A stretch of DNA of 27,633 bases from a virus. Its lineage: Duplodnaviria > Heunggongvirae > Uroviricota > Caudoviricetes. The notes below the pieces were generated by a model. The model was not told where the DNA came from, searched no databases, and saw only the letters and a list, made by a program, of their open reading frames with translations. The DNA lies in IMG/VR virus record IMGVR_UViG_2630968911_000005, one strand, 5' to 3'. Below, piece after piece: positions 1 through 25,015 of this stretch (position 1 is the first letter of the stretch; each line of letters starts with the position of its first letter). A program made the position numbers and the translations under genes.

Positions 1-1
1 A

Positions 2-2183: not shown

Positions 2184-2230
2184 TAGATGGTCACACGTCC
2201 TGCTGGTGGATGTGATTTCGTGATGACCGT

Positions 2231-6145: not shown

Positions 6146-6325
6146 ATGAAAAACGCATTGCAGTTTTTGTTTGTTGCGTTCTGGTTGTTCGCATCATGTA
6201 TGCCCATCATCTTCACAGCAAGGTATATGGAAAAAGTTGATGTTTTGATATTAATATTTGGATATATAAATGCCCTTTTTTTAGGGGTGTTCATGGCGGT
6301 CATGTGCATTGAATACTGGCGGTAA
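6146..6325 (+). CDS. Small hydrophobic protein (59 aa, two predicted transmembrane segments)
   Basis: ATG at 6146 preceded by AGGAGG 6 nt upstream. Product MKNALQFLFVAFWLFASCMPIIFTARYMEKVDVLILIFGYINALFLGVFMAVMCIEYWR. Confidence 0.45.
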   Translation: MKNALQFLFVAFWLFASCMPIIFTARYMEKVDVLILIFGYINALFLGVFMAVMCIEYWR

Positions 6326-6659
6326 ATACAGCGAACTCCATTGGTTTAGTTGGATATTTACTGTGCTGGACAAAAACGGTTTGCGGGGAAATCTTAGTTA
6401 AGTAGAATGACTGCGGGTGCTTGAGGCTATCTGCCTCGGGCATGGACACCAACGGCAGATAGAGAAAAGCCCCAGTTAACATTACGCGTCCTGCAAGACG
6501 CTTAACATTAATCTGAGGCCAATTTCATGCTAGACACATGTAGGTTAGCCTCTTACGTGCCGAAAGGCACGGAGAAGCAGGCTATTGTTAACACCAAGCT
6601 GTAATGTCCCCTTTGAACCATTCTAAAATGTCCCCAGACAATTCTCTGGGGGATTTTTC

Positions 6660-7973
6660 ATGATCAAAGAGACTGTTACGATGAGTCATAAGGAACTCCA
6701 CCGACTTCAGATTATTCAGGAACAAGCTGCGGCACGCATTGGCATTTCTATTCGGCAGGTTAAACGTCTGGTGCAACGGTATAGAAATGAAGGGCCTTCT
6801 GGTCTGGTTTCCCACCGACGTGGAAAGCGTCCTAATAATTCCTTTTCTACTGAATTCAGAGCAACAGTAATTTCACTCCTCAAAGGCCGTTACGCTGATT
6901 TTGGACCTACGTTTGCGTGCGAAAAATTGCGCGAGATACACGGTTTATCTTTATCCGTTGAAACTCTCAGAAAGTGGATGATAGAAGAGGGGTTATGGCG
7001 TGAACGCCGTCGTAAAATTGCCCGTATATATCAACGCCGCATGCGACGACCATCTTACGGTGAACTGATCCAGATTGATGGCTCACCTCATGACTGGTTT
7101 GAAAATCGAGGCCCCAGATGTACACTGATCGTTTTCATTGATGATGCCACCAGTGCGTTGATGGCGTTGCGTTTTGTGCCTGCTGAAACAACCCGGGCTT
7201 ACATGGAAACCCTCCGGGGTTACCTTAATGATCATGGCGTACCGCTCGCTCTCTACTCTGATAGACACAGTATATTCAGGGTAAATAACCCAGAGCGGGA
7301 AGGTGAGCTGACCCAGTTCACTCGTGCGATAAAGACACTGGGCATCGAGCCAATCCATGCCAACAGCCCGCAGGCAAAAGGGCGGGTAGAGCGCGCCAAT
7401 CAGACACTACAGGACAGGCTGGTCAAAGAAATGCGGCTTCAGAATATCAGTGATATTGAAACAGCAAATGCATGGTTGCCGACCTTTATTGAAGCCTATA
7501 ACAACCGGTTCGCTACGTCGCCTCGTACTACTGATAATGCTCATCTTGATGTGCACCATTCTGAAGAGGAACTGGGTTATATCTTCAGCCTACAGGCGAA
7601 GCGCGTTCTGTCTAAAAATCTCACTTTCCAGTACAAAAGCAGTGCGTTTCAGGTACGCAGTGAGGGCCGGGGATATCGACTTAGGCATTCGGTTGTTACT
7701 GTATGCGAGAACTTTGACGGTGAAATTAACGTTCTGTATGACGGGAAAGCGCTGGGCTGGGAAAAGTATGTTGATGGCCCGGAGCCTATACCACTGGATG
7801 ATGAAAAGAGTGTCCATGAACGAGTGGATAATGCCCGTATTGATTTACGCTCAAAATACTATGTTAAACCTAAAGCTGACCATCCCTGGCTTACGCGCCG
7901 AACGCAAAGTCATCAGCAAGTTAAGCCCCCGAAGTTACCTAAAAAGAAGCCTGATCCCGATAAAAAAGATTGA
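6660..7973 (+). CDS. DDE transposase/integrase, rve superfamily with N-terminal HTH; IS481-family or ISNCY(IS1202-group)-like
   Basis: 437-aa ORF. N-terminal pattern RQVKRLVQRYRNEGPSGLVSHRRGKRP; catalytic D (IQIDGS), D (LYSDRHSIF) and E (GRVERANQTLQ). RBS GGGGGA upstream of ATG. Confidence 0.8.
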   Translation: MIKETVTMSHKELHRLQIIQEQAAARIGISIRQVKRLVQRYRNEGPSGLVSHRRGKRPNNSFSTEFRATVISLLKGRYADFGPTFACEKLREIHGLSLSVETLRKWMIEEGLWRERRRKIARIYQRRMRRPSYGELIQIDGSPHDWFENRGPRCTLIVFIDDATSALMALRFVPAETTRAYMETLRGYLNDHGVPLALYSDRHSIFRVNNPEREGELTQFTRAIKTLGIEPIHANSPQAKGRVERANQTLQDRLVKEMRLQNISDIETANAWLPTFIEAYNNRFATSPRTTDNAHLDVHHSEEELGYIFSLQAKRVLSKNLTFQYKSSAFQVRSEGRGYRLRHSVVTVCENFDGEINVLYDGKALGWEKYVDGPEPIPLDDEKSVHERVDNARIDLRSKYYVKPKADHPWLTRRTQSHQQVKPPKLPKKKPDPDKKD

Positions 7974-8005
7974 AACCAAGATCGATTCGGTTGAGTGCAT
8001 TGATC

Positions 8006-8896
8006 CTACCCACGTAATATGGACACAGGCCTAAGCGAGGTTCTGGTTTTCAATTGTTCCGGACTGAGGCCGCCACACCAACTGTGCCGCCGCCACCGAT
8101 TGTAATCACATTCGATATAATTAAATACCGTTGCCCGCATTATTTCCCGGCTGATAAAGTGTTTTCCATGGATACATTCCACTTTCAGCGAATGAAAGAA
8201 GCTTTCCACGCAGGCATTATCGTAGCAGCAACCTTTTGCGCTCATACTTCCACGCAGATTATGCCGCTTCAGTTGCGCCTGATAATCTGCTGAACAGTAC
8301 TGGCCTCCACGGTCCGTGTGAACGATAACGTTCCGGGGCCTCTTACGCCGCCACAGCGCCATCTGCAGGGCATCGCAGGCCAGTTGCGCCGTCATGCGTG
8401 GCGACATTGACCAGCCAATAACGGCACGTGACCACAGGTCAATGACCACTGCCAGATACAGCCAGCCTTCATCTGTACGTAAGTACGTGATGTCTCCTGC
8501 CCACTTCTGGTTCGGGCCACTGGCGTAAAAATCCTGCTCCAACAGATTTTCTGACACAGGCAGGCCGTGTGCGCGGTAGCTGACCGGGCTGAACTTCCGG
8601 GAGGCCTTTGCCCTCAGTCCCTGACGGCGCAGGCTTGCCGCCACGGTTTTTACGTTAAAGGGGTAACCCTGAGCACGCAGTTCATCCGTCAGGCGTGGGG
8701 CACCGTAACGCTGTTTTGACCGGGTAAAAGCCGCGAGGACAACGCTGTCGCAGTGTTGGCGGAACTGCTGACGCGTGCTTATCCTTGTCCGCCGCTGACA
8801 CCACGTATACCAGCCGCTGCGGGCCACCCGGAGCACGCGGCACATTGCTTTGATGCTGAACTCAGCCTGATGTTTTTCAATAAAGACATACTTCAT
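8006..8896 (-). CDS. insF: IS3 transposase OrfB (InsF), DDE integrase core
   Basis: Protein matches IS3 InsF as recalled ([21 protein letters not shown] ... DRGGQYCS ...) except at the extreme C-terminus. Confidence 0.9.
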
Positions 8897-9192
8897 TTCA
8901 GGCGCTTCGCGAAGTATGTCGCGGCCTTTTGGAGGATAGCCAGCTCTTCATCCCGTTCTGCCAGCTGGCGTTTGAGACGTGCAATCTCGGTAGACATCTC
9001 CAGTTCACGTTCAGAAGACGTCTGCTGATTTTGCTGTTTACTGCGCCAGTTGTAGAGCAGTGATTCATACAGGCTGAGTTCACGGGCTGCGGCAGTAACA
9101 CCGATGCGTTCAGCAAGCTTCAGGGCTTCACTGCGAAATTCAGGCGAATGCTGTTTACGGGGTTTTTTACTGGTTGATACTGTTTTTGTCAT
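8893..9192 (-). CDS. insE: IS3 transposase OrfA (InsE), HTH protein
   Basis: [32 protein letters not shown]... matches IS3 OrfA as recalled. The ORF track begins 3 codons upstream (9201). Confidence 0.9.
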
Positions 9193-9669
9193 GTGAGTCA
9201 CCTCTGACTGAGAGTTTACTCACTTAGCCGCGTGTCCACTATTGCTGGGTAAGATCACATATCCATTCATAGGGTAGATTCTTAAGTCGCGTTTCTGGTG
9301 TTCATTTTCGGGTGGTTTGTTACTTGTTTTACCGGGGATATGCCAGAAACGCGCTGAGTCAGTCTGGGCGGTGCGCGTAATGAGGCGTTATGGTAAATAG
9401 CCTATGCTAATGTCCGCTAAGAGCAAGAAGCGGAAGTTGGCAGTTTTGTGGACTGTCCCCACAAAAGTGACTACAGAAATAGTTGCAATTCATAATTGAT
9501 CATGGGTTGTCAGTTAAACTCGTGGCGATTTAAATAGACTAATTGGGAGTGCGTCCATTACTTATATCTTGTAATGTTAACTATCAGAAATGATACAAAG
9601 ATAATATGTCTTTAAAGAAAAGGCTGATGGCGAAAAGTGGCCCGATGAGGGCCACAATACGGCTGTCAC

Positions 9670-10002
9670 TTAGACGTAAATATCAATGGTGCCAGCGGTA
9701 TTTGTATCGTCTTTTTTCTCTTCTTTTTTATCAGGCTGAACTGTCGCGTCTTCATTCTTTTTCTCTGCCTGCTGCCTTAACAACTGCTCCAGTTGAGCCC
9801 AGAGGCTTTCAATTTGCTTCTGTACCAATGCAGCCATTTCTTTTTTCTGCTGTGTCGTCATCCCCTCTTCCGATGAGATTTTCCCAAGCTTTTCAGTCAG
9901 CACCTGAATTTGTCTTGTGATTTTGGCTATTTCTGATGTTCCTTCCGGGGCGGAGTTGTTTGAAATAACGGTTGAGGTATTTCCCTGAATTGTGACAGAC
10001 AT
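9670..10002 (-). CDS. flxA: FlxA-like protein (FliA-regulated prophage gene)
   Basis: 110-aa product matches E. coli K-12 FlxA as recalled. RBS AAGGAG upstream. Confidence 0.9.
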   Translation of the reverse strand: MSVTIQGNTSTVISNNSAPEGTSEIAKITRQIQVLTEKLGKISSEEGMTTQQKKEMAALVQKQIESLWAQLEQLLRQQAEKKNEDATVQPDKKEEKKDDTNTAGTIDIYV

Positions 10003-10025
10003 AGATTTCTCCTTTTAAAAAAGCA

Positions 10026-10052
10026 CTATCGGCATGCACAAAAAAATCTTTA
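10026..10052 (-). promoter_or_regulatory. Sigma-28 (FliA) class 3 flagellar-type promoter for flxA
   Basis: Minus strand reads TAAA-N15-GCCGATAG (consensus TAAA-N15-GCCGATAA), ending about 24 nt upstream of the flxA ATG. Confidence 0.6.
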
Positions 10053-10204
10053 ATCGTATTTCTTGTGTCATTAATTGTTTGATGTTCAGATTGTTTTCCT
10101 CGCGGGCTGGCGCGCCTCAGAAAGTAAAGCTTGTTGACAGGGGTAAACGTTCGGCAATAATTTTCTGCCGCATGCGGGTGTTGCATAAAACGTGTTACGT
10201 TCCT

Positions 10205-10510
10205 TTATCGACAGGTCAGGTCACCGCTCACCCGCCGACGAGAAAGCAACACTGACATGCTAAAGCAAAAAATAGATGAATAAGTTGAGTTGTGCATATG
10301 TAGCCTGACCGTCACAAAGTATATGGTGTCTGTACCAGTAAGATGATGGCCGGACTCTTTAAAAACGAGCTGACCTGCACAATACAGGATGGACTTAGCA
10401 ATGGCTGCTCCTGGCACAAAGCGGACAGTGATCACCGTTCTTACGACTACTTTCTGACTTCCTTCGTGACTTGCCCTAAGCATGTTGTAGTGCGATACTT
10501 GTAATGACAT
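10205..10510 (-). CDS. ydfV: Hypothetical protein (YdfV-like position and length, 101 aa); doubtful gene
   Basis: ORF divergent from relB, same position and length as K-12 ydfV. No clear RBS or motifs. Confidence 0.3.
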   Translation of the reverse strand: MSLQVSHYNMLRASHEGSQKVVVRTVITVRFVPGAAIAKSILYCAGQLVFKESGHHLTGTDTIYFVTVRLHMHNSTYSSIFCFSMSVLLSRRRVSGDLTCR

Positions 10511-10523
10511 TTGTAATTACAAG
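10471..10523 (+). promoter_or_regulatory. relBE promoter (TTGCCC-N17-GATACT) with overlapping operator repeats (relO)
   Basis: CTTGTAATGACATTTGTAATTACAAG at 10498-10523 has repeated TTGTAAT hexads with dyad symmetry, just upstream of relB. Confidence 0.6.
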
Positions 10524-10534
10524 AGGTGTAAGAC

Positions 10535-10774
10535 ATGGGTAGCATTAACCTGCGTATTGACGATGAACTTAAAGCGCGTTCTTACGCCGCGCTTGAAAAA
10601 ATGGGTGTAACTCCTTCTGAAGCGCTTCGTCTCATGCTCGAGTATATCGCTGACAATGAACGCTTGCCGTTCAAACAGACACTCCTGAGTGATGAAGATG
10701 CTGAACTTGTGGAGATAGTGAAAGAACGGCTTCGTAATCCTAAGCCAGTACGTGTGACGCTGGATGAACTCTGA
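10535..10774 (+). CDS. relB: RelB antitoxin
   Basis: 79-aa product matches K-12 RelB as recalled (MGSINLRIDDELKARSYA...). Stop overlaps relE start (TGATG). Confidence 0.95.
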   Translation: MGSINLRIDDELKARSYAALEKMGVTPSEALRLMLEYIADNERLPFKQTLLSDEDAELVEIVKERLRNPKPVRVTLDEL

Positions 10775-11061
10775 TGGCGTATTTTCTGGATTTTGACGAG
10801 CGGGCACTAAAGGAATGGCGAAAGCTGGGCTCGACGGTACGTGAACAGTTGAAAAAGAAGCTGGTTGAAGTACTTGAGTCACCCCGGATTGAAGCAAACA
10901 AGCTCCGTGGTATGCCTGATTGTTACAAGATTAAGCTCCGGTCTTCAGGCTATCGCCTTGTATACCAGGTTATAGACGAGAAAGTTGTCGTTTTCGTGAT
11001 TTCTGTTGGGAAAAGAGAACGCTCGGAAGTATATAGCGAGGCGGTCAAACGCATTCTCTGA
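10774..11061 (+). CDS. relE: RelE mRNA interferase toxin
   Basis: 95-aa product matches K-12 RelE as recalled (MAYFLDFDERALKEW...). Confidence 0.95.
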   Translation: MAYFLDFDERALKEWRKLGSTVREQLKKKLVEVLESPRIEANKLRGMPDCYKIKLRSSGYRLVYQVIDEKVVVFVISVGKRERSEVYSEAVKRIL

Positions 11062-11132
11062 ACCAAAGCATGACATCTCTGTTTCGCACCGAAGGTGACA
11101 CTTCTGCTTTGCGTTGACAGGAGAAGCAGGCT

Positions 11133-11288
11133 ATGAAGCAGCAAAAGGCGATGTTAATCGCCCTGATCGTCATCTGTTTAACCGTCATAGTGACGGCACT
11201 GGTAACGAGGAAAGACCTCTGCGAGGTACGAATCCGAACCGGCCAGACGGAGGTCGCTGTCTTCACAGCTTACGAACCTGAGGAGTAA
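11133..11288 (+). CDS. hokD: Hok-family small membrane toxin HokD (RelF), 51 aa
   Basis: Manual translation MKQQKAMLIALIVICLTVIVTALVTRKDLCEVRIRTGQTEVAVFTAYEPEE. Below the ORF-track size cutoff. RBS GGAGAAG upstream. Confidence 0.85.
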   Translation: MKQQKAMLIALIVICLTVIVTALVTRKDLCEVRIRTGQTEVAVFTAYEPEE

Positions 11289-11356
11289 GAGACCCGGCGG
11301 GGGAGAAATCCCTCGCCACCTCTGATGTGGCAGGCATCCTCAACGCACCCGCACTT

Positions 11357-11390
11357 AACCCGCTTCGGCGGGTTTTTGTTTTTATTTTCA
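11357..11390 (+). terminator. Rho-independent terminator after the relBE-hokD operon
   Basis: Stem CCCGC/GCGGG with TTCG loop, followed by TTTTTGTTTTTATTTT. Confidence 0.6.
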
Positions 11391-11504
11391 ACGCGTTTGA
11401 AGTTCTGGACGGTGCCGGAATAGAATCAAAAATACTTAAGTAGCGCGCAGGGATAAGAGGGATGGTCCCTTAAAGGGGAGAGCTAATTATCCGGAAGGAT
11501 TCTG

Positions 11505-11756
11505 ATGATGAACATCGAAGAACTGCGTAAAATTTTTTGTGAAGATGGCCTCTATGCTGTGTGCGTTGAAAATGGAAATCTTGTTAGTCATTACCGCATT
11601 ATGTGTTTGCGAAAGAATGGGGCTGCGTTAATTAATTTTGTGGATGCTCGGGTCACGGACGGATTTATCTTGCGCGAAGGTGAGTTTGTCACTTCATTAC
11701 AGGCATTGAAAGAGATCGGAATAAAAGCTGGCTTTTCTGCTTTTTCAGGAGAATAA
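11505..11756 (+). CDS. rem: Rem protein (function unknown)
   Basis: 83-aa product matches K-12 Rem as recalled (MMNIEELRKIFCEDGLYAVC...). Confidence 0.85.
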   Translation: MMNIEELRKIFCEDGLYAVCVENGNLVSHYRIMCLRKNGAALINFVDARVTDGFILREGEFVTSLQALKEIGIKAGFSAFSGE

Positions 11757-11822
11757 ACTCATCTACAATCTTGCGCGGGGCTGAACTCCCGCTGAGTAAC
11801 ACCGTGCCACCGGAGAAAACCG

Positions 11823-12101
11823 ATGGCACGCAACGCAAAATATTACAATTCTGATAATTCGCCCGTTCTTGCCTGCACGCACGGGCGGTATTCTCACGCA
11901 TTCAAGTCTGAATGGTTCCAGCACCCTCCATGCACTGCAGAACAGGCCGAATGGCTGATTCATTCTTACCGCAGGCGCGGGTTCGAGGTTAAGAAAGCTC
12001 TCAGTCTCGACTATCGGCACTGGATAATCTCTGTCAGGCTGCCTTATTCCGAACGCCCACCACGTGCGTCCCGCACTTTCCAGCAACGGATCTGGAGGTA
12101 A
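11823..12101 (+). CDS. Hypothetical protein (92 aa) immediately upstream of ydfU
   Basis: ORF ends 2 nt before the ydfU start. Cys/His-containing sequence. No homolog recognised. Confidence 0.4.
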   Translation: MARNAKYYNSDNSPVLACTHGRYSHAFKSEWFQHPPCTAEQAEWLIHSYRRRGFEVKKALSLDYRHWIISVRLPYSERPPRASRTFQQRIWR

Positions 12102-12102
12102 C

Positions 12103-13152
12103 GTGCGGGTATTACTTAGACCTGTTCTGGTGCCTGAGCTTGGGCTGGTGGTCCTTAAGCCGGGCCGTGAATCCATACAGATATTTCATAATCCTCGAGT
12201 GCTGGTGGAACCGGAACCAAAAAGCATGCGTAATCTGCCATCCGGAGTCGTTCCTGCCGTTCGCCAGCCGCTGGCGGAAGACAAAACATTGCTGCCGTTT
12301 TTTAGTAACGAACGGGTGATTCGTGCTGCTGGCGGCGTTGGCGCATTGTCCGACTGGCTATTACGTCATGTTACATCCTGCCAGTGGCCTAATGGCGATT
12401 ACCATCACACTGAAACAGTCATTCACCGTTATGGTACCGGCGCAATGGTGTTGTGCTGGCACTGCGACAACCAACTGCGTGACCAGACATCGGAATCACT
12501 GGAGCTGCTTGCTCAACAAAATCTGACAGCATGGGTGATTGACGTCATCCGTCACGCAATAAGCGGTACGCAGGAGCGGGAATTATCTTTGGCTGAATTA
12601 TCCTGGTGGGCGGTCTGCAATCAGGTGGTGGATGCACTACCTGAGGCTGTATCGCGTCGTTCGCTGGGATTACCAGCGGAAAAAATCTGCTCGGTGTACC
12701 GCGAAAGCGACATCGTACCGGGAGAGCAGACCGCCACCAGCATATTGAAACAACGCACAAAAAATCTTGCACCGTTGCCTTACGCCCACCAGCAACAAAA
12801 ATCACCACAGGAAAAGACGGTGGTAAGCATCACCGTTGATCCAGAGTCTCCGGAATCTTTCATGAAGCTGCCTAAACGTCGCCGCTGGGTTAAGGAGAAA
12901 TACACACGTTGGGTTAAGACACAGCCGTGTGCTTGCTGCGGTATGCCAGCCGACGATCCGCATCATCTGATTGGTCACGGGCAGGGCGGAATGGGAACAA
13001 AAGCACATGATCTCTTTGTGTTGCCTTTGTGCAGAAAGCATCACAACGAGCTGCATACGGATACAGTGGCATTTGAAGATAAGTATGGCTCCCAACTGGA
13101 GCTGATATTTCGTTTTATCGATCGCGCGCTGGCAATTGGCGTACTGGCGTAA
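12103..13152 (+). CDS. ydfU: YdfU-like protein with C-terminal HNH/zinc-binding-like motif
   Basis: GTG start at 12103 with GGAGG 5 nt upstream gives 349 aa. C-terminus has CACCGMPADDPHHLIGHGQGG ... CRKHHNELH. Confidence 0.8.
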   Translation: MRVLLRPVLVPELGLVVLKPGRESIQIFHNPRVLVEPEPKSMRNLPSGVVPAVRQPLAEDKTLLPFFSNERVIRAAGGVGALSDWLLRHVTSCQWPNGDYHHTETVIHRYGTGAMVLCWHCDNQLRDQTSESLELLAQQNLTAWVIDVIRHAISGTQERELSLAELSWWAVCNQVVDALPEAVSRRSLGLPAEKICSVYRESDIVPGEQTATSILKQRTKNLAPLPYAHQQQKSPQEKTVVSITVDPESPESFMKLPKRRRWVKEKYTRWVKTQPCACCGMPADDPHHLIGHGQGGMGTKAHDLFVLPLCRKHHNELHTDTVAFEDKYGSQLELIFRFIDRALAIGVLA

Positions 13153-13165
13153 GTGGAGAACGAGC

Positions 13166-13918
13166 ATGAACCTTGAAGCCTTACCAAAATATTACTCCCC
13201 AAAATCTCCAAAATTGAGCGATGACGCTCCAGCGACAGGCACCGGTTGTTTAACAATTACGGATGTAATGGCAGCGCAGGGGATGGTGCAGTCGAAAGCA
13301 CCACTTGGGTTGGCCTTATTTCTGGCAAAAGTTGGTGTTCAGGACCCTCAGTTTGCGATTGAAGGCCTGCTAAATTACGCGATGGCACTGGATAACCCGA
13401 CATTGAACAAATTGAGTGAAGAAATCCGGTTACAGATTATTCCTTACCTCGTGAGTTTTGCCTTTGCTGATTACTCCAGGTCTGCGGCAAGTAAGGCTCG
13501 CTGTGAGCATTGTTCAGGTACGGGATTTTATAATGTATTGCGCGAAGTGGTGAAACACTACAGACGCGGGGAATCTGTAATCAAGGAAGAATGGGTGAAG
13601 GAACTATGTCAGCATTGCCATGGTAAGGGCGAAGCCAGCACAGCGTGCAGAGGGTGTAAGGGTAAAGGGATTGTTCTGGATGAAAAAAGAACCCGGTTTC
13701 ATGGCGTACCGGTATATAAGATTTGTGGGCGTTGTAATGGAAACCGGTTTAGTCGTTTACCGACCACGCTGGCACGACGTCATGTCCAGAAGCTGGTACC
13801 AGACCTGACCGATTATCAGTGGTATAAGGGGTATGCGGACGTCATTGGTAAACTGGTAACAAAGTGCTGGCAGGAAGAAGCATACGCGGAAGCGCAATTG
13901 AGGAAGGTGACGAGATAA
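13166..13918 (+). CDS. quuQ: Late-gene antiterminator Q (lambdoid Q family)
   Basis: 250 aa from ATG 13166 (GGAG upstream). Contains zinc-finger-like CEHCSGTG / CQHCHGKG / CRGCKGKG. Followed by a promoter plus terminator unit. Confidence 0.85.
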   Translation: MNLEALPKYYSPKSPKLSDDAPATGTGCLTITDVMAAQGMVQSKAPLGLALFLAKVGVQDPQFAIEGLLNYAMALDNPTLNKLSEEIRLQIIPYLVSFAFADYSRSAASKARCEHCSGTGFYNVLREVVKHYRRGESVIKEEWVKELCQHCHGKGEASTACRGCKGKGIVLDEKRTRFHGVPVYKICGRCNGNRFSRLPTTLARRHVQKLVPDLTDYQWYKGYADVIGKLVTKCWQEEAYAEAQLRKVTR

Positions 13919-13949
13919 ATGATTTTTGCTGAAGATGGCGACATGATGT

Positions 13950-13978
13950 TTGCATTTTTCAAAAAATATGGATAAAAT
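13950..13978 (+). promoter_or_regulatory. PR'-like late promoter (TTGCAT-N17-TAAAAT) downstream of Q
   Basis: Near-consensus sigma-70 hexamers with 17-bp spacer; terminator about 50 nt downstream, as in lambda PR'/qut/tR'. Confidence 0.5.
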
Positions 13979-14023
13979 TTTTTCAACGATGGGCTTTGTA
14001 TACCCGACGTTAAGAAAAAGTAG

Positions 14024-14054
14024 AAAACCCGCTGATGAGCGGGTTTTGTGCTTT
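14024..14054 (+). terminator. Rho-independent terminator (tR'-like) ending a short leader transcript
   Basis: AAAACCCGCT-GATG-AGCGGGTTTTGTGCTTT: 6-bp GC stem followed by a T-run. Confidence 0.6.
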
Positions 14055-14339
14055 AAATGGGGCAATGGTAATGTTGAATCTCATCCCGGGACTCATGTCT
14101 GTTAACTTATTATTTAGCTGGTGACTTGGTTATTTGCCTGATGTTTAAAATGTTTTCTTCCAGTACAATGTCCCTAAACACAATGAGTCTGCTTATTATA
14201 TTATTAGCAGAGCTATTACGGCCAAAGTACAGCATAAGCTTTTAAAGCCAATCAACCAGTCATCAAGACAGACGGGGTTATTCATAAAAACTCTCCATGT
14301 GTGATCCGATGGGGCCTGAAATTAAAGCTTTAATATAGC

Positions 14340-14552
14340 TCATGAAAGGTAAACATTGGCAGCTGAAGGGCCACGCAGACCATTTATCCGGCAAAATTCC
14401 ACGCGTAATCCGGTGGTAATTTCTTCTGCATCGCGGAGATTGAGCGCTGAAACATGAAGCTGGACATCGATACGACCATCGGATGGGGTGATAAGACCCT
14501 TGCCGCTTTTGCCGTCAAAGGTTTTGACAATTCCTGTCATTTTACGGGACAA
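14340..14552 (-). CDS. cspF: Cold-shock protein family member CspF
   Basis: 70-aa cold-shock-domain protein ([26 protein letters not shown]...). Confidence 0.9.
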
Positions 14553-14852
14553 AAAAATTCCTTAATACTGATAACTTGGCGCACTATACACACGTTCCTG
14601 AAGAAAGCTATAGTTTTTTGATGGGGTTGAAGATGGCTGGATGTCTAAAATAAACATTGCTTCATATGTTCAACTATGCGTTAATGATTGCGTCGGTTTG
14701 AAGAACAGACGATATACGAAGTAGTTTACTAAAGCAGTTCTCATTTCAGGTGTTATTCACTTATTCCTTCTTTGAGTCTCTCCAATTAAGTACGAAGTCG
14801 TTTCTGTTATGCAAACCATTTATGCCGAAAGGCTCAAGTTAAGGAATGTAGA

Positions 14853-15068
14853 ATGTCAAATAAAATGACTGGTTTAGTAAAATGGTTTAACGCTGATAAA
14901 GGTTTCGGCTTTATTTCTCCTGTTGATGGTAGTAAAGATGTGTTTGTGCATTTTTCTGCGATTCAGAATGATAATTATCGAACCTTATTTGAAGGTCAAA
15001 AGGTTACCTTCTCTATAGAGAGTGGTGCTAAAGGTCCTGCAGCAGCAAATGTCATCATTACTGATTAA
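14853..15068 (+). CDS. cspB: Cold-shock protein CspB
   Basis: 71-aa product with RNP motifs (KGFGFI, VFVHF). Long AT-rich 5' leader upstream. Confidence 0.92.
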
Positions 15069-15347
15069 AATTCATCGCTCGTCTGTATACGATAACGAAG
15101 AAGGCTGATGCCTGAGTAGAGATACGGACAGAGTAGTGAATATTGGATCTCTTTAATAAAAAGTAAGGAGGTCCAATACATGAAACAATGGCTAGCATAT
15201 TTGGCAAAATCTTAATCAGGAAAAGTATGCTAACCATTGTGGTGAAGTGCAGGTTTGCTGCATGAATAGTTTTACAGCAGAAGCTAACTGCTGGCATGGC
15301 AAAACAAAGTGCGTAAGTGGATGACTCCCACAAAAAGCACCACAATC

Positions 15348-15375
15348 TCAAACCCGCTCAGGCGGGTTTTTTATT
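15348..15375. terminator. Bidirectional rho-independent terminator between cspB and ynfU
   Basis: AAACCCGC-TCAG-GCGGGTTTTTTATT: GC stem flanked by an A-tract and a T-tract. Confidence 0.6.
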
Positions 15376-15431
15376 ATCTGCTTTAAATATATTATTAAAA
15401 TATAAAAAATACTTGTTACTAATAAAATCAA

Positions 15432-15602
15432 TCAGGCTACAGCTTTAAGATTTGTCTGGAATACTTTGTTGCAATGAGGGCAGATCAAAAGGGCACCTTT
15501 TTGTACTCTTGAAAAACTGTGTTCTGACTCTTGGGTGCAGTTTGGGCAGGAACATTTAACGAGATAATTACGGCGTGATTTTGAGTTTTTACGTTCTGAC
15601 AT
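15432..15602 (-). CDS. ynfU: Small zinc-ribbon protein YnfU-like (56 aa)
   Basis: MSERKNSKSRRNYLVKCSCPNCTQESEHSFSRVQKGALLICPHCNKVF... has two CxxC-type pairs. The ORF track begins 17 codons upstream. Confidence 0.65.
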   Translation of the reverse strand: MSERKNSKSRRNYLVKCSCPNCTQESEHSFSRVQKGALLICPHCNKVFQTNLKAVA

Positions 15603-15821
15603 AGGCTTTTCCTGTATAAATGGCCGTATACAGTACACTAAATATGAAAACATTTCTCGTATTATTATTTTATATATGACTTTCTTTCAAAATAATTACC
15701 CACATTTTTAATGTGTATGTTTTTTTAGCGCCGTTGAGAACAACGTGTGCTGTCAAAACTACCCCGTAGACTCCGATCTTTTCAAACATATTGCACCATC
15801 CGTGTACATCGGGGTGAGGAT

Positions 15822-16037
15822 ATGAAATCAATGGATAAGTTAACAACAGGTGTTGCCTATGGCACATCGGCGGGTAATGCTGGTTTCTGGGCATTGCAGT
15901 TACTCGATAAAGTAACTCCGTCACAGTGGGCTGCAATCGGTGTGCTGGGTAGCCTGGTTTTTGGCCTGCTGACGTATCTGACAAATCTTTATTTCAAGAT
16001 TAAAGAAGACAGGCGTAAGGCTGCGAGAGGAGAGTAA
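15822..16037 (+). CDS. essQ: Phage-21-type pinholin (S21-like), dual-start motif MKSMDK
   Basis: 71 aa, [26 protein letters not shown]...[15 protein letters not shown]; resembles S21 pinholin as recalled. RBS GGGGTGAGGA upstream. Confidence 0.88.
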
Positions 16038-16041
16038 TCCA

Positions 16042-16349
16042 ATGACTCAAGACTATGAACTGGTTGTGAAAGGAGTCCGTAATTTTGAGAATAAAGTTAC
16101 GGTAACTGTAGCCTTACAGGACAAAGAACGCTTTGACGGTGAAATTTTTGACCTGGATGTCGCCATGGACCGTGTTGAAGGAGCTGCGCTGGAGTTTTAT
16201 GAGGCAGCAGCCAGAAGGAGCGTCCGGCAAGTCTTCCTGGAAGTAGCAGAAAAATTGTCAGAAAAAGTTGAGTCTTATCTGCAGCATCAGTACTCCTTTA
16301 AGATTGAAAATCCTGCCAATAAGCACGAGCGTCCTCATCATAAATATCT

Positions 16350-16353
<4 letters not shown>
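16042..16353 (+). CDS. ydfR: YdfR-like protein of unknown function between holin and endolysin
   Basis: 103-aa ORF; its stop overlaps the endolysin start (ATGA). Confidence 0.8.
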
Positions 16354-17377
<1,024 letters not shown>

Positions 17378-17739
17378 GGTAATATTAAATCGGAACATTT
17401 ACATCGCGGAATGTAAAATTTAAATAAAAAGGACTCTTCCATGAGCCAAAATTCCTGAAATCTTAAGGGTAAGATAAAAGGTCTTAATCAGAATGACACG
17501 TTTTATTAATAAATAAAGCTATTCTTTCATTGCTGTGTTTTTCTTTACAAAAGTAATCCTTGCTATGGGTGGTTAATCATGCGTTAATGGTGTTCTGGTT
17601 TGTTACAAATTTATCTGAAGCAGTCATTGTTATAATTTTATTATTTGTACCTCTTGAGATTTCCTTGTTGGTTTTTCTCTCTGATATTTTTTTTCGGACC
17701 ATTCTGCCCAAGGGCTAATTTCTTCAAAAGGTAATAATT

Positions 17740-17952
17740 ATGTCTAACAAAATGACTGGTTTAGTGAAATGGTTTAACCCTGAAAAAGGTTTTGGTTTCA
17801 TCACGCCGAAAGATGGCAGCAAAGATGTGTTTGTCCATTTCTCAGCAATTCAGAGCAACGATTTCAAAACATTAACTGAGAATCAGGAAGTTGAATTTGG
17901 TATTGAGAACGGACCTAAAGGTCCTGCCGCTGTTCATGTAGTGGCGCTTTGA
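17740..17952 (+). CDS. cspI: Cold-shock protein CspI
   Basis: 70-aa cold-shock-domain protein ([34 protein letters not shown]...). RBS AAGGTAA. About 350-nt AT-rich leader. Confidence 0.92.
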
Positions 17953-18156
17953 GGTAGACAATATTACAAACCATATTCACTTTAGATGCCCGTGTTGTCA
18001 TGGTTCCCAGTATAGAACATCATCTTTTGATGTTTCTGACATGAATCCTTTCGGGGCAAAATGTATCTTTTGTAAATCAATGATGATTACATTTGATAAT
18101 ATTTCACAATACTTAAATGCCAGCCGTCTGTCGTTGGATTTAAAAAAGTGAAAATG

Positions 18157-18180
18157 AAGGCTCCTTCGGGAGCTTTTTTG
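18157..18180 (+). terminator. Rho-independent terminator with UUCG tetraloop downstream of cspI
   Basis: AAGGCTCC-TTCG-GGAGC followed by TTTTTT. Confidence 0.55.
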
Positions 18181-18223
18181 CTTGGTGTCTATTCGATGGA
18201 TACTCACATACTACGGTAACATC

Positions 18224-18454
18224 ATGAAAAAAATCATAGTTTTTTTTAACTCTGAACCAGCAGTGGTAGTGCCAGCGATGACTGGAGTTAACACCATCAT
18301 GCGTGAATATCCAAATGGCGAAAAAACACACCTTACTGTAATGGCCGCAGGGTTTCCATCTCTGACCGGAGATCATAAAGTCATTTATGTAGCCGCGGAT
18401 CGACATGTTACTTCAGAAGAAATTCTGGAAGCAGCAATAAGGCTCTTGAGTTGA
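18224..18454 (+). CDS. Hypothetical protein (start uncertain; the K-12 neighbour at this position, ynfN, is shorter)
   Basis: ORF MKKIIVFFNSEPAVVVPAMTGVNTIMREYPNGEKTHLTVMAAG.... Alternative ATG at 18299 has GGAG upstream. Confidence 0.45.
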   Translation: MKKIIVFFNSEPAVVVPAMTGVNTIMREYPNGEKTHLTVMAAGFPSLTGDHKVIYVAADRHVTSEEILEAAIRLLS

Positions 18455-18625
18455 TTTGATGCTATTGCATTGATAATTCAGGAAAATTCTCTTTGTCTGT
18501 TTGTGTAAAATTTAGACTATCGTATGTTGATTATTGCGATGTTTCATCTTATCTTTTACACGTTTGCACCATATAATCGACTTACTGTGTAACTGGAAAG
18601 TCATAACAGACTAAAAGAGGAAATG

Positions 18626-18799
18626 ATGAATATTGAAAACTTAAAAACAAAAGCAGAAGCAGATATTTCTGAATATATAACAAAAAAAATTATTGAACTT
18701 AAGAAAAAGACCGGGAAAGAAGTTACCAGTATTCAGTTTACCGCACGGGAAAAAATGACGGGTCTTGAAAGCTATGATGTCAAGATTAATTTAATCTGA
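18626..18799 (+). CDS. gnsB: GnsA/GnsB-family small protein
   Basis: Manual translation MNIENLKTKAEADISEYITKKIIELKKKTGKEVTSIQFTAREKMTGLESYDVKINLI. Below the ORF-track cutoff. RBS AAAGAGGAAA. Confidence 0.8.
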   Translation: MNIENLKTKAEADISEYITKKIIELKKKTGKEVTSIQFTAREKMTGLESYDVKINLI

Positions 18800-18950
18800 T
18801 GTATTCAATAATAAAATTTATCCATAAACCTCGTTTTTACGGGGTTTTGTTATATTTGAATGGTTCCGAATATCTAAATCACAATTGTTGATGGTTTTTA
18901 TTAAACCAATGCAGTCCGGCTCAGGAGTGAGAGAAGCCGGACGTTATGGT

Positions 18951-19376
18951 TTAGCGTGGTAAGATCTGTGTAGTTTTCTGGATGCTTTCAGTAAATAGTA
19001 ATGAATTATCAAAGGTATAGTAATATCTTTTTTGTTCGTGGATATTTGTAACCCACCGAAAAACTCCTGCTTTAGCAAGGTTTCTTCTGTATTCCTGAAA
19101 TGTGATCTCTCTGGATTTCAGCTTATTAGAGGTCGTTTCTATAAGATGCCTATCCTTTGAAAATTTGACAGACACAATGTTTTTTAGGCCCTTTAATAAC
19201 ACTGTATTATCATTTTTTAATACAATATGAACATTCTCTGTGGCTAAATAGTAAATGTAATGTGAGACATTGTGACGTTTTAGCTCAGAATAAAACCATT
19301 GATAGTTTAAATCGTTTCGAACTTTATCAAATATTTGTTTAAAAATGACTACCTGATCCATAGATAAACCGTCCAT
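18951..19376 (-). CDS. ydfO: YdfO-like protein; alternative start at 19361
   Basis: 141-aa ORF matching the position and length of K-12 ydfO. Confidence 0.75.
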
Positions 19377-19418
19377 GTGATATGAGGGGGCGTAGTCTGC
19401 ACGATTATCTAAATTGCT

Positions 19419-19652
19419 TCAATCTGGTCTGACCTGTTTTCTGAGCAATTCAGTAATGTCACTCTTTTCTTTGTTTGCTTCAGAAGAAACTCTTTTTTCT
19501 GAGCACAGTCTCCGGCGGCAGGCTTCAATGACCCAGGCTGAGAAATTCCCGGACCCTTTTTGCTCAAGAGCGATGTTAATTTGTTCAATCATTTGGTTAG
19601 GAAAGCGGATGTTGCGGGTTGTTGTTCTGCGGGTTCTGTTCTTCGTTGACAT
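19419..19652 (-). CDS. ynfO: YnfO-like small protein, possibly ribbon-helix-helix DNA-binding
   Basis: 77-aa basic protein; RNIRFPNQMIEQINIALEQKG resembles a beta-strand plus helix DNA-binding N-terminus. Confidence 0.7.
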   Translation of the reverse strand: MSTKNRTRRTTTRNIRFPNQMIEQINIALEQKGSGNFSAWVIEACRRRLCSEKRVSSEANKEKSDITELLRKQVRPD

Positions 19653-19851
19653 GAGGTTGCCCCGTATTCAGTGTCGCTGATTTGTATTGTCTGAAGTTGT
19701 TTTTACGTTAAGTTGATGCAGATCAATTAATACGATACCTGCGTCATAATTGATTATTTGACGTGGTTTGATGGCCTCCACGCACGTTGTGATATGTAGA
19801 TGATAATCATTATCACTTTACGGGTCCTTTCCGGTGATCCGACAGGTTACG

Positions 19852-19863
19852 GGGCGGCGACCT
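19852..19863 (+). other. cosN: lambda-type 12-nt cohesive-end sequence GGGCGGCGACCT
   Basis: CCGACAGGTTACG-GGGCGGCGACCT-CGCGGGTTTTCGCTATTTATGAAAATTTTCC matches the lambda cos junction as recalled. Confidence 0.85.
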
Positions 19864-19903
19864 CGCGGGTTTTCGCTATTTATGAAAATTTTCCGGTTTA
19901 AGG

Positions 19904-20011
19904 CGTTTCCGTTCTTCTTCGTCGTAACTTAATGTTTTTATTTAAAATACCCCCTAAAAAGAAAGGAAACGACAGGTGCTGAAAACGAACTTTTGGGCCT
20001 CTGTCGTTTCC
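19904..20011 (+). promoter_or_regulatory. cosB: terminase Nu1 binding elements R3, R2, R1 with intervening IHF-site-like AT tract
   Basis: CGTTTCC at 19904-19910, GGAAACG at 19965-19971 (inverted), CGTTTCC at 20005-20011, in lambda-like arrangement upstream of Nu1. Confidence 0.75.
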
Positions 20012-20040
20012 TTTCTCTGTTTTTGGCCGTGGAATGAACA

Positions 20041-20562
20041 ATGGAAGTCAACAAAAAGCAGCTGGCTGACATTTTCGGTGCGAGTATCCGTACCATTCAG
20101 AACTGGCAGGAACAGGGAATGCCCGTTCTGCGAGGCGGTGGCAAGGGTAATGAGGTGCTTTATGACTCTGCCGCCGTTATAAGATGGTATGCCGAAAGGG
20201 ATGCTGAAATTGAGAACGAAAAGCTGCGCCGGGAAGTTGAAGAACTGCGGCGGGCCAGCGAGACAGATCTCCAGCCAGGGACTATTGAGTACGAACGCCA
20301 TCGACTTACGCGTGCGCAGGCCGACGCACAGGAGCTGAAAAATGCCAGAGACTCCGCTGAAGTGGTGGAAACCGCATTCTGTACTTTCGTGCTGTCGCGG
20401 ATCGCAGGTGAAATTGCCAGTATTCTCGACGGGATCCCCCTGTCGGTGCAGCGGCGTTTTCCGGAACTGGAAAACCGACATGTTGATTTCCTGAAACGGG
20501 ATATCATCAAAGCCATGAACAAAGCAGCCGCGCTGGATGAACTGATACAGCATGGACGTTGA
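20041..20562 (+). CDS. nohQ: Terminase small subunit Nu1 homolog; C-terminal about 11 residues replaced at a deletion junction
   Basis: [42 protein letters not shown]... matches lambda Nu1 through ...AAALDELI, then ends QHGR. Confidence 0.9.
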
Positions 20563-23500
20563 GTACGGTCAGTACAGCGTTATTCTGTTGGTGGAGGGAT
20601 TCCCGCCGTCACATGCCGGGACCATCACCGTGTATGAAGATTCTCAACCCGGTACGCTGAATGATTTTCTCGGTGCCATGACGGAGGATGATGCCCGTCC
20701 GGAGGCACTGCGTCGTTTTGAACTGATGGTGGAAGAGGTGGCGCGTAACGCGTCCGTGGTGGCACAGAACACGGCAGCCGCAAAGAAGTCAGCCAGTGAT
20801 GCCAGCACATCTGCCAGTGAGGCGGCAACCCGTGCGACTGATGCTGCAGATTCAGCACGTGCAGCCAGCACGTCAGCCGGACAGGCCGCGTCGTCGGCTC
20901 AGTCAGCGTCTTCCAGCGCAGGAACGGCATCAACAAAGGCCACTGAAGCCTCAAAAAGTGCTGCCGCTGCAGAGTCCTCAAAAAGCGCGGCGGCTACCAG
21001 TGCCGGTGCGGCGAAAACGTCAGAAACGAATGCGGCAGCGTCAGAACAATCAGCCGCCACTTCTGCATCCACCGCGACCACGAAAGCGTCAGAAGCTGCC
21101 ACCTCAGCCAGGGATGCGTCGGCTTCAAAAGAGGCGGCAAAATCATCAGAAACGAGCGCAGCCTCGAGCGCCAGTCGTGCAGCCTCCTCGGCAACAGCGG
21201 CAGGAACTTCCGCGAAGGCGGCAAAAACGTCCGAGACGAACGCAAAGTCTTCTGAGACGGCAGCGGGACAGAGTGCCTCCGCAGCAGCAGACTCAAAAAC
21301 AGCGGCTGCCTCATCTGCCAGCGCCGCGTCAACAAATGCCGGGCAGGCCTCAGCCAGTGCCACCGCTGCCGGAAAGTCGGCAGAAAGCGCCGCATCATCC
21401 GCTTCAACAGCCACAACGAAGGCTGGCGAAGCCACTGAACAGGCCACGGTAGCAGCGAGGTCAGCTTCCGCAGCGAAGACATCCGAAACGAACGCGAAAG
21501 CGTCGGAAACCAGCGCAGAATCCTCAAAAACGGCTGCCGCATCGTCAGCCAGTTCGGCGGCGTCATCGGCATCATCGGCGTCTGCTTCAAAAGATGAGGC
21601 GACCAGACAGGCGTCAGCAGCGAAGGGCAGCGCCACGACGGCATCCACGAAGGCGACAGAGGCAGCTGGCAGTGCGACGGCGGCAGCTCAGAGCAAAAGT
21701 ACGGCGGAATCCGCGGCAACGCGCGCCGAGACAGCAGCAAAACGGGCAGAGGATATTGCATCCGCCGTGGCGCTTGAGGATGCGAGCACGACGAAAAAGG
21801 GGATAGTACAGCTCAGCAGTGCGACCAACAGTACGTCTGAAACGCTGGCGGCAACGCCAAAGGCAGTAAAATCAGCCTATGACAATGCAGAGAAACGTCT
21901 GCAGAAAGACCAGAACGGCACTGATATACCCGATAAGGGACGCTTCCTGAACAACATTAACGCGGTCAGTAAAATAGACTTTGCTGATAAGCGTGGTATG
22001 CGTTATGTGCGGGTTAACGCTCCTGCAGGTGCAACATCTGGAAAATATTACCCTGTTGTTGTTATGCGTTCTGCTGGCTCAGTAAGCGAACTGGCATCAA
22101 GGGTCATTATCACCACGGCAACGCGAACCGCAGGCGATCCGATGAATAACTGCGAGTTTAACGGATTTGTTATGCCTGGTGGCTGGACTGACAGGGGGCG
22201 TTATGCTTATGGAATGTTCTGGCAATATCAAAACAATGAACGAGCCATCCACTCAATAATGATGAGTAATAAGGGCGATGATTTGCGCTCTGTGTTCTAT
22301 GTTGATGGCGCTGCTTTCCCTGTTTTTGCGTTTATCGAAGATGGCCTGTCAATATCCGCACCTGGTGCTGATCTCGTTGTTAATGATACGACCTATAAGT
22401 TTGGGGCAACAAATCCAGCGACTGAATGTATCGCGGCGGACGTTATCCTTGATTTTAAGAGTGGGCGTGGTTTTTATGAGTCTCATTCGTTAATCGTTAA
22501 CGATAATTTGTCGTGCAAAAAACTTTTTGCCACAGACGAAATTGTAGCGCGTGGTGGTAATCAGATTCGAATGATAGGTGGGGAGTATGGTGCATTATGG
22601 CGTAATGATGGCGCTAAAACTTACCTGCTGCTTACCAATCAAGGTGATGTTTATGGTGGCTGGAATACATTAAGACCGTTTGCTATTGATAACGCAACCG
22701 GCGAACTGGTTATTGGAACCAAACTGTCCGCAAGTCTGAACGGTAATGCATTAACAGCAACAAAGCTGCAAACGCCAAGACGGGTTTCTGGTGTTGAGTT
22801 TGATGGTTCCAAAGATATTACTTTAACCGCCGCGCATGTGGCTGCTTTTGCCAGAAGGGCAACGGATACATATGCCGATGCGGATGGTGGCGTTCCCTGG
22901 AATGCCGAATCAGGTGCTTACAATGTCACCCGCTCTGGCGACAGCTATATTCTGGTTAACTTCTATACCGGAGTCGGAAGTTGCCGGACCTTGCAGATGA
23001 AGGCGCATTACAGAAATGGTGGTCTGTTCTACCGTTCTTCAAGAGACGGTTATGGTTTTGAGGATGACTGGGCAGAAGTTTATACCTCGAAAAATCTTCC
23101 ACCAGAAAGCTACCCAGTCGGCGCACCAATCCCGTGGCCATCAGATACCGTTCCGTCTGGCTATGCCCTGATGCAGGGGCAGACTTTTGACAAATCTGCA
23201 TACCCGAAACTTGCAGTGGCTTATCCGTCAGGCGTTATTCCTGATATGCGTGGCTGGACGATTAAGGGCAAGCCCGCCAGTGGTCGTGCCGTATTGTCTC
23301 AGGAACAGGACGGCATTAAATCGCACACCCACAGCGCCAGCGCATCCAGTACGGATTTGGGGACGAAAACCACATCATCGTTTGATTACGGCACTAAATC
23401 CACGAATAACACTGGTGCACATACCCATAGTGTTAGCGGTACGGCTGCTTCAGCCGGTGCACATACCCATTCGATGACATTTGTTTCAGGTGGTTCCAGT

Positions 23501-23752
23501 GGTGCTCCGGGAAGTGGATCACCTGATTATTCTAAATACAGTGTTAACACTTCTTCTGCAGGCGCTCATACGCACTCTGTATCGGGTACTGCTGCAAGCG
23601 CAGGTGCACACGCACATACTGTCGGTATTGGTGCTCATACGCACTCCGTTGCGATTGGCTCACATGGACACACCATCACCGTTAACGCTGCTGGTAACGC
23701 GGAAAACACCGTCAAAAACATCGCATTTAACTATATTGTGAGGCTTGCATAA
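20552..23752 (+). CDS. stfQ: Side tail fibre protein (lambda Stf family), N-terminally truncated by deletion
   Basis: Begins at lambda Stf internal [12 protein letters not shown]. Long Ala/Ser/Thr repeats (AAKTSETNA...). C-terminal GAHTHS repeats and ...[14 protein letters not shown]. Confidence 0.9.
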
Positions 23753-24327
23753 TGGCATTCAGAATGAGTGAACAACCACGGACCATAACAATTTATAATC
23801 TGCTGGCCGGAACTAATGAATTTATTGGTGAAGGTGATGCATATATTCCGCCTCATACAGGTCTGCCAGCAAACAGTACCGATATTGCACCGCCAGATAT
23901 TCCGGCTGGCTTCGTGGCTGTTTTCAACAGTGATGAGTCATCGTGGCATCTCGTTGAAGATCATCGGGGTAAAACGGTTTATGACGTGGCTTCCGGCGAC
24001 GCGTTATTTATTTCTGAACTCGGTCCGTTACCGAAAAATGTTACCTGGTTATCGCCGGAAGGGGAGTTTCAGAAGTGGAACGGCACAGCCTGGGTGAAGG
24101 ATACGGAAGCAGAAAAACTGTTCCGGATCCGGGAGGCGGAAGAAACAAAAAACAACCTGATGCAGGTAGCCAGTGAGCATATTGCGCCGCTTCAGGATGC
24201 TGCAGATCTGGAAATTGCAACGGAGGAAGAAATCTCGTTGCTGGAAGCATGGAAAAAGTATCGGGTATTGCTGAACCGTGTTGATACGTCAACTGCACAG
24301 GATATTGAATGGCCAGCACTGCCGTAG
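23752..24327 (+). CDS. tfaQ: Tail fibre assembly protein (Tfa)
   Basis: 191-aa ORF overlapping the stf stop (TAATG). N-terminus [26 protein letters not shown]. Confidence 0.85.
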
Positions 24328-24424: not shown

Positions 24425-25015
24425 TTATATGTCAGGTGTCTGAAGTTTTGCTTTGGCTCTTAAAATGGTTTGCCGCGAGGTTTTGAATTCCCGGGCAATG
24501 GCACTTATACTTACACCTGACTTAATTCGTTCGAATACCACCTGTTTCTGTTCTTCATTTAACACAGGTGGTCGACCAAAACGTTTCCCTGCGCCGCGGG
24601 CTCTTACTATCCCGGAATGAGTGCGTTCAAGTAAAAGGTCTCGTTCAAATTCAGCAACTGCTGAAATTACTTGCATCATCATTTTTCCTGTTGGACTGGT
24701 CAAGTCAATGCCCCCCAATGCTAAGCAATGTACTCTGATACCTGTTTCGGTCAGTTGTTCCACTGTTTTCCTGATATCCATTGCATTACAACCAAGGCGA
24801 TCCAGTTTTGTCACAATCAATTGATCACCACATTTCAGGCGAGCAAGCAACCGGTTAAAACTAGGACGCTCACTGGTTGCTGCTGAGCCGCTAATGTGTT
24901 CTTCGATTATTTGCTGAGGTTTGATTTTAAAACCTGCACTTTCGATTTCCCGGCGTTGATTTTCGGTGGTCTGATCCAGCGTTGATATCCGACAGTAAGC
25001 AAAAATTCGAGACAT
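24425..25015 (-). CDS. pinQ: Serine recombinase DNA invertase (Pin/Gin/Hin family)
   Basis: [20 protein letters not shown]... with the catalytic serine in the RIST motif. C-terminal HTH. Confidence 0.92.

Follow-up and report, generated by a model that had tools for sequence, protein, structure and literature searches.

Illegitimate recombination between short homologies in E. coli has hot spots at which one endpoint is fixed at an origin nick or a terminator; the M13 and pC194 origins and terB are examples. Two joints of E. coli K-12 are close in kind to the one described here. The nohA/stfQ joint (b1548/b1547), located in the same prophage, Qin, and at the same chromosomal site, links a lambda-like nu1 to stf, all head and tail genes being gone. 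Its left break is at lambda 719, nine bases into gene A. The K-12 stfQ gene (320 codons) is annotated as beginning at the GTG that starts gene A (L003 7840-7848), and hence StfQ consists of the first three gpA codons followed by the last 317 Stf codons. In the K-12 prophage DLP12 a large internal deletion has likewise brought a lambda-like packaging remnant up against tail fibre genes (nohD-aaaD'-tfaD'). Fur and FNR sites upstream of K-12 nohA have been demonstrated experimentally (PMC2189734, PMC1802558), the role of PinQ has been addressed (PMC12529663), and lambdoid prophages readily exchange the nu1 and stf/tfa regions (PMC3945230).

We studied a stretch of 27,633 nucleotides (IMG/VR record IMGVR_UViG_2630968911_000005), further referred to as the window, whose sequence identifies it as the cryptic E. 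coli prophage Qin. Most of its length aligns with Qin of K-12 MG1655 in several blocks of 98.9-100% identity, its right end enters ydfJ, as at the Qin insertion site, and it contains the Qin gene set of dicB, relBE, hokD, cspB/F/I, ydfK, pinQ, tfaQ, stf' and nu1'. The identity with E. coli G4/9 is 99.97% over 27.3 kb, and the annotation of that genome also names int, xis, an exonuclease, lysis genes, ydfO and ynfO.

Several features are particular to this variant. Nothing in the window matches the K-12 immunity segment (ydfX, dicC, dicA, ydfA-C, dicF); positions 4665-7788 are occupied by other DNA with a methyltransferase gene, pseudogenes and a partial ISNCY transposase. A sok-like Rfam match lies at 6415-6586, and no DicF RNA was found in the window. 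IS3 at 8001-9257 is not present in K-12. The integrase, excisionase and 2.5-kb exonuclease genes at positions 1-4112 are apparently intact, whereas in K-12 Qin intQ and ydfE are pseudogenes interrupted by IS2. Rfam leaders of the cspA thermoregulator type were matched at 14692-15084, upstream of cspB, and at 17594-17979, upstream of cspI.

The features around the joint of nu1 and stf are as follows.

19852..19863, plus strand: cosN cohesive end GGGCGGCGACCT (lambda 1-12), placed by sequence and by BLAST, window 19852 corresponding to lambda 1
19864..20040, plus strand: cosB region, from cosN to the nu1 start codon (lambda 13-190, 97.6%)
20041..20562, plus strand: truncated nu1 (nohA-like), 173 aa, from the open reading frame, Pfam and the G4/9 annotation ("DNA-packaging protein")
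20546..20548, strand not applicable: joint TAC, common to nu1 (lambda 696-698) and stf (lambda 19794-19796)
20546..23752, plus strand: 5'-truncated stf (stfQ-like), first 48 codons missing, from the open reading frame, alignment and Pfam
23752..24327, plus strand: tfaQ, tail fibre assembly, intact, from the open reading frame, Pfam (Caudo_TAP) and the G4/9 annotation
24425..25015, minus strand: pinQ serine invertase, beside tfaQ, from the G4/9 annotation (L001 24126-24716 with an offset of 299)

In BLAST comparison with lambda, window 19852-20548 matches lambda 1-698 (cos and nu1) with 97.6% identity, and window 20546-21306 matches lambda 19794-20554 (stf) with 85.8% identity. The two blocks overlap by 3 bp, the TAC at 20546-20548, which both parents carry, and the crossover lies inside it. 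Aligned with lambda nu1/A, the nu1 parent reads GAACTGATAC^CGGGGTTGC across the joint (^ marks the break), with CGGGG directly after the break; the intact stf parent reads GGGCGTTAC^AGCATGGACG, with AGCATGG directly after the break; and the window contains the product GAACTGATAC^AGCATGGACG. Thus nu1 base 508 is joined to stf base 145-147 via TAC. Relative to lambda, the window lacks 699-19793 (19,095 bp in lambda equivalents), a segment with gene A, every head and tail gene, lom and stf codons 1-48.

The nu1 and stf blocks are collinear with lambda, have the same orientation, abut at TAC and bracket exactly the morphogenesis genes, as a simple deletion would leave them. The flanks share the 3-bp TAC, with no inserted DNA between them. 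An adjacent deletion mediated by an IS element was considered and rejected: nu1 is continuous up to the joint, tail-fibre sequence follows directly, and there is no IS end. The initial annotation had proposed such a deletion of morphogenesis genes with a joint confined to about 3 bp, and both points hold; its estimate of roughly 20 kb was right in order of size, the computed value being somewhat less. The alignment revealed no foreign sequence between the blocks, which would have spoken against that proposal, and placed the joint where it had been claimed. The same joint occurs in E. coli G4/9, the only one of 5,426 complete E. coli genomes to contain it as one uninterrupted match, and in IMG/VR contig L192, which is 99.97% identical to the window over 6.5 kb with the joint included. 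Therefore it is not an assembly artefact.

On the left of the joint, the lambda-homologous block containing nu1 begins at cosN (19852). Inverted R-site repeats, which we take to be the Nu1-binding sites, were found by a repeat search at the counterpart of cosB in lambda. The product of the truncated gene has 169 residues of Nu1, the last codon being ATA at 20545-20547, followed by QHGR (CAG CAT GGA CGT) and the TGA stop codon at 20560-20562. Pfam Phage_Nu1 (PF07471) is matched in full, at positions 1-164 of 164 (E = 6e-101, 335 bits at a cut-off of 30); the C-terminal 12 residues of lambda Nu1, PGLLSEYIEQSG, which lie beyond the profile, are lost. Hence a Nu1 protein without its last 12 residues would still be encoded behind an intact cos. 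It is the C-terminal part of Nu1 that contacts gpA and carries the specificity of this binding. In the window, cosN and nu1 are closely preceded by an FNR site, TTGATGCAGATCAA, at 19713-19726 and a Fur box, GATGATAATCATTATC, at about 19799-19815. Since the sites of K-12 nohA are thus retained, the nu1 remnant may be transcribed under host control.

On the right, the stf frame is closed upstream by TGA at 20543-20545, is open from 20546 (TAC AGC ATG GAC GTT GAG TAC, or YSMDVEY) and has its first in-frame ATG at 20552, giving an open reading frame of 1066 aa ending at 23752. The N-terminal domain (Pfam PF08400, phage_tail_N) is incomplete, with only profile positions 51-134 matched. Residues 1-48 of intact Stf relatives are absent from the aligned window protein, and PGAP lists the gene in G4/9 as a pseudogene with a "missing N-terminus". 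The domain affected is thought to attach the fibre to the tail. From the ATG at 20552 the frame shares 11 nt with the end of nu1', and no clear ribosome-binding site was seen upstream of that codon, so that expression would be weak: at best, Stf lacking its 48-50 N-terminal residues could be translated from this codon at a low level. Both reading frames are as the initial annotation had described them, with Nu1 running through the ATA codon to QHGR and stop, and with Stf resuming at YSMDVEY behind the TGA. Its notion of a nu1-stf fusion applies to the DNA only. Since the Nu1 frame runs out of register into QHGR and a stop codon, and the stf frame is closed upstream, no fusion protein is formed. 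An Rfam match to the IS009 sRNA was also observed within tfaQ, at window 24095-24293.

With gpA and the head and tail genes all gone, this Qin variant would be unable to form particles; presumably it can neither package DNA nor build virions and is cryptic for that reason. The scar itself is without an activity of its own. It is an allele not seen before of a well-known type of prophage scar, and as a feature it is ordinary.

The nearest explanation would be that the joint is the K-12 nohA/stfQ event inherited by descent. The prophage, the locus and the gene pair are the same, and from window 9258 the window is 99.94% identical to K-12. However, this identity stops exactly at 20548. After lambda 698, K-12 has 21 more nu1/A bases, CGGGGTTGCTGAGTGAATATA, followed by distal stf, ACCGCGCTGACAG; the window does not carry nu1/A through lambda 719 followed by ACCGCGCTGACAG. 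The left breaks are therefore different, 719 in K-12 and 698 in the window, and the right break in K-12 is about 2.2 kb deeper in stf. K-12 retains the last 317 codons of stf only, whereas the window begins at codon 49 and retains all except the first 48. K-12 thus retains nu1/A bases absent from the window, which in turn retains about 2.2 kb of stf absent from K-12. As both forms of Qin contain DNA missing from their counterpart, a simple deletion cannot turn either joint into the other, and hence Qin has lost its morphogenesis genes at least two times. The alignments refute common descent of the two joints, for which we see practically no chance; the window deletion is independent of that in K-12 Qin. 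The comparison with K-12 that the initial annotation had called for thus agrees in prophage and gene pair and differs in the joint. The K-12 type of joint was found in at most 375 of the 5,426 complete E. coli genomes, and the window type in one.

The joint could also have been made in another defective prophage and imported ready-made by homologous recombination in the nu1 and stf/tfa flanks. Lambdoid prophages readily trade these regions (PMC3945230). In the stf arm of the window, identity reaches 99.5% with Salmonella phage SPF_0923 and 97.8% with Escherichia phage PhiR29_1, and the matching segment of K-12 is divergent; being far closer to a Salmonella phage than to K-12 stfQ, this arm leaves room for import. 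In addition, nu1 of locus L007 is a mosaic with a lambda-like 3' half. On the other hand, no other prophage with the joint was found, the copies in G4/9 and L192 being the same Qin element, and import bears only on where the deletion happened, not on its nature. We regard it as unlikely.

The interest of the locus lies in the recurrent nu1 endpoint rather than in the scar itself. The breakpoint in nu1 coincides with a sharp deletion hot spot, GATA^CC, at lambda 697-699, which precedes the start codon of gene A by 12-14 bp and has its counterpart in the window at GATAC, 20544-20548. About 27 distinct joints, that of the window among them, have their left end within lambda 696-705, with sharp maxima after A697 and C699 (loci L004-L014, L043-L057, L099, L139, L161 and L186-L199; lambda reference L002).

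These joints were collected in several ways. The first set contained nine defective prophages with nu1 near lom or stf, from different strains and loci (the DLP12 site, the intS site, the potB site and others), in which the breaks were placed against lambda. For the second set, we searched with lambda 400-1400 and sampled records down the whole ranking. The joints at the hot spot in these two sets are listed below, together with that of the window.

L004: nu1 break at lambda 697, partner lom (..STFSG), first set
L007: nu1 break at lambda 697, partner lom (MAYSRV), first set
L009 and L010: nu1 break at lambda 697, partner the stf start codon, first set
Window: nu1 break at lambda 698, partner stf codon 49
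L005: nu1 break at lambda 700, partner lom (KYRYEF), with 6-bp ATACCG in common, first set
L006: nu1 break at lambda 705, partner stf (GFPPSH), first set
L014: nu1 break at lambda 697, partner another tail-fibre gene, second set
L012: nu1 break at lambda 698, partner portal gene B, second set
L013: nu1 break at lambda 699, partner gene J, second set

Left ends outside the hot spot in the search with lambda 400-1400 were at 520, 913, 960, 1018 (K-12 DLP12) and 1240. In complete E. coli genomes, left ends were found at 697 in four joints that differ in their partners, at 698 in two, and at 699, 700 and 705. Among the listed loci, L004 5742-6476 (E. coli L725) is an in-frame Nu1-Lom fusion open reading frame whose first 169 residues are Nu1, annotated simply as an outer-membrane protein of the Ail/Lom family.

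An IMG/VR sample anchored 440 bp upstream of the hot spot (lambda 239-258) yielded 25 internal breaks within lambda 260-2600, about 23 of them distinct. Six of these approximately 23 fall in lambda 697-703, against about 0.07 expected per 7-nt window. The others are at 261, 347, 425/427, 528, 583, 623, 720, 880 (twice), 960, 1540, 1877, 2179, 2268/2271 and 2359/2362. IMG/VR was also scanned base by base for nu1 that continues up to a given position and then gives way to a non-native base; mere point variants of the intact gene were removed. For last nu1 bases 695, 696, 697, 698, 699, 700 and 701, the numbers of distinct joints were 0, 1, 8, 1, 4, 1 and 0, respectively, and a metagenome scan for breaks at 697 added ten further partners. 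Both kinds of scan require an exact nu1 match of 21-25 nt, and the counts refer to distinct joints rather than to dated events. Two metagenome contigs, L053 and L055, were left out of the counts because they match by a 22-mer only. They share the exact 22-nt GCCGCGCTGGATGAACTGATA, their remainder cannot be aligned with lambda nu1 without gaps, and they may be divergent small-terminase genes or chance matches. In GTDB, the scan for hot-spot joints returned mostly lambda spike-in contamination and nothing new. A lambda nu1 20-mer occurs there in unrelated assemblies (Kitasatospora, Bradyrhizobium, Paenibacillus, Shewanella and others; L018-L041) on contigs that are short or about 48.5 kb long, most likely contamination with lambda control DNA.

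The right partners are diverse and include gene A (2179, 2248, 2489), W/B (2694, 2941), E (6595), head-tail genes (8065), I/J (15018 to about 18143), lom, stf and further genes for tail fibres. Several nu1 haplotypes are represented among the left arms, and every one of these haplotypes also occurs with intact nu1-A; this argues for repeated events over a single left end passed on by descent. For joints with an available intact partner sequence, the microhomology is 0-6 bp and nearly always includes T696-A697 (TA, ATA, GATA, TAC, TACC, ATACCG). Some of the joints at the hot spot could be secondary deletions from older joints rather than fresh events: in L049 the K-12 partner is joined at 697 instead of 719, with the 22-nt difference flanked by ATA repeats, and L004 equals L007 minus 17 nt. 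Endpoints are reused on the right side as well. The distal-stf partner ACCGCG(C/T)TGACAGACAATACGCAGGGGG occurs with three left ends, lambda 697, 719 and 880 (L049, K-12 L003 at 7840, and L141), perhaps through successive trims of one old joint.

A recurrent cut after residue 169 of Nu1 would also be expected if the truncated protein were selected, for example because it acted as a dominant-negative small terminase and kept superinfecting lambda-like phages from being packaged. The full Nu1 domain is kept while the tail that binds gpA in lambda terminase genetics is lost, and the Fur and FNR sites described for nohA (PMC2189734, PMC1802558) are kept too. Nevertheless, selection on the protein should tolerate a range of endpoints, and the observed profile is sharp when resolved into single bases. 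The tails that follow I169 are from 3 to more than 118 residues long, with no excess of short tails or in-frame fusions. Moreover, about eight further joints, all distinct, have their break well within nu1 (lambda 261-623), and thus the integrity of nu1 is not required. Selection of this kind appears improbable to us.

A site-specific recombinase, either a Pin invertase or a prophage integrase acting at a pseudo-site, is a further candidate for a fixed endpoint. The pinQ gene, which is context here and lies outside the joint, is about 1.7 kb downstream, and nu1 contains ATACC-GG-GGTTG, which we liken to the inner core AAACC-NN-GGTTT of the Gin/Hin/Pin crossover site. However, such an enzyme would be expected to cross over at lambda 699-701, not at 697, and the outer half-sites match at 5-6 of 12 positions. 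None of the approximately 27 right partners resembles an invertase site, and the prophages carry different integrases. Recognisable recombinase sites were not seen at the joint partners. We consider this explanation very improbable.

Other possible causes of the hot spot were also looked for. A module boundary at about 697 was rejected, because intact phages align continuously across lambda 400-1400. DNA hairpins on both strands of lambda 640-780 and 880-960 had z-scores from -0.4 to +1.5, like those of shuffled sequences, and a search of lambda 1-2800 for direct and inverted repeats gave nothing at the hot spot. No true Chi occurs in nu1 of the window. The nearest Chi-like octamer, GCTGGATG, which ends 8 nt before the hot spot, has two mismatches and was rejected; such an octamer precedes only 3 of 7 break clusters, which is not significant. 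The likeness to cosN (TACCG^GGG versus TTACG^GGG) is too loose, and neither the partners nor the other break clusters have it. Both parents of the window joint have a FokI-type GGATG at 9 nt upstream, which is not a general feature. To the right of the joints, imperfect homology amounts to a mean match of about 2.9 of 10 versus 2.5 expected, i.e. no effect. No IS element was seen at any of the hot-spot joints. Neither a nickase site nor an origin or replication barrier was found at lambda 697-699, and we know of none there.

Left ends also recur elsewhere with different partners (880/880 and 913/915/915). Small clusters in gene A, at 880, 913-915, 2265-2271 and 2359-2362, each consist of 2-3 joints that share the left end within 0-3 nt (L008, L011, L015, L121, L141, L079, L168, L112 and L170). 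Lambda 1-2700 contains just two copies of GATACC, at 694 and 2265, each of which is a break cluster, the second being that at 2268/2271. This pattern was noticed with the data in hand and therefore counts as a lead only.

Taken together, we estimate at roughly 0.85 the probability that the scar results from one illegitimate, microhomology-mediated deletion in the lambda-like ancestor of Qin, independent of that in K-12 and with a left end that was probably nonrandom. A local lesion, for instance a nick, break or stalled 3' end, would recur at lambda 697-699, and its end would then be joined to any downstream site with 0-6 bp of homology including TA; in the window, nu1 base 508 would have been joined to stf 145-147 through the common TAC. 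We infer a lesion of this kind, which most likely seeds the illegitimate joining, because one endpoint is fixed within 2-3 bases while the other is variable, and because the homologies are short. More tentatively, and with somewhat more doubt than confidence, GATA^CC may be an undescribed sequence-specific fragile site, at which a nick, break or stall seeds one-sided deletions of lambdoid morphogenesis genes. Such a lesion could be made by a phage or host nuclease, possibly terminase. No description of the hot spot was found in the searchable literature, a body from which most subscription journals are absent.

The window joint documents the loss of the virion genes in one variant of Qin. If the hot spot is true, the decay of prophages is not a random walk and would be channelled by a specific DNA lesion, and if the fragile site is true, it would be a major route to defective lambdoid prophages. 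The hot spot is relevant to the speed at which temperate phages become disarmed in E. coli and to which remnants (cos, nu1 and tail-fibre genes) are left for reuse by the host.

Among the described systems, the DLP12 joint of K-12 differs from that of the window in its left end, which is at lambda 1018 inside gene A, in its right end, which is in tfa, and in its locus. In the form of its endpoints the nu1 hot spot resembles the deletion hot spots at the M13 and pC194 origins and at terB, where one endpoint is likewise fixed within a few bases, the other is variable, and the homology at the joint is 0-6 bp.
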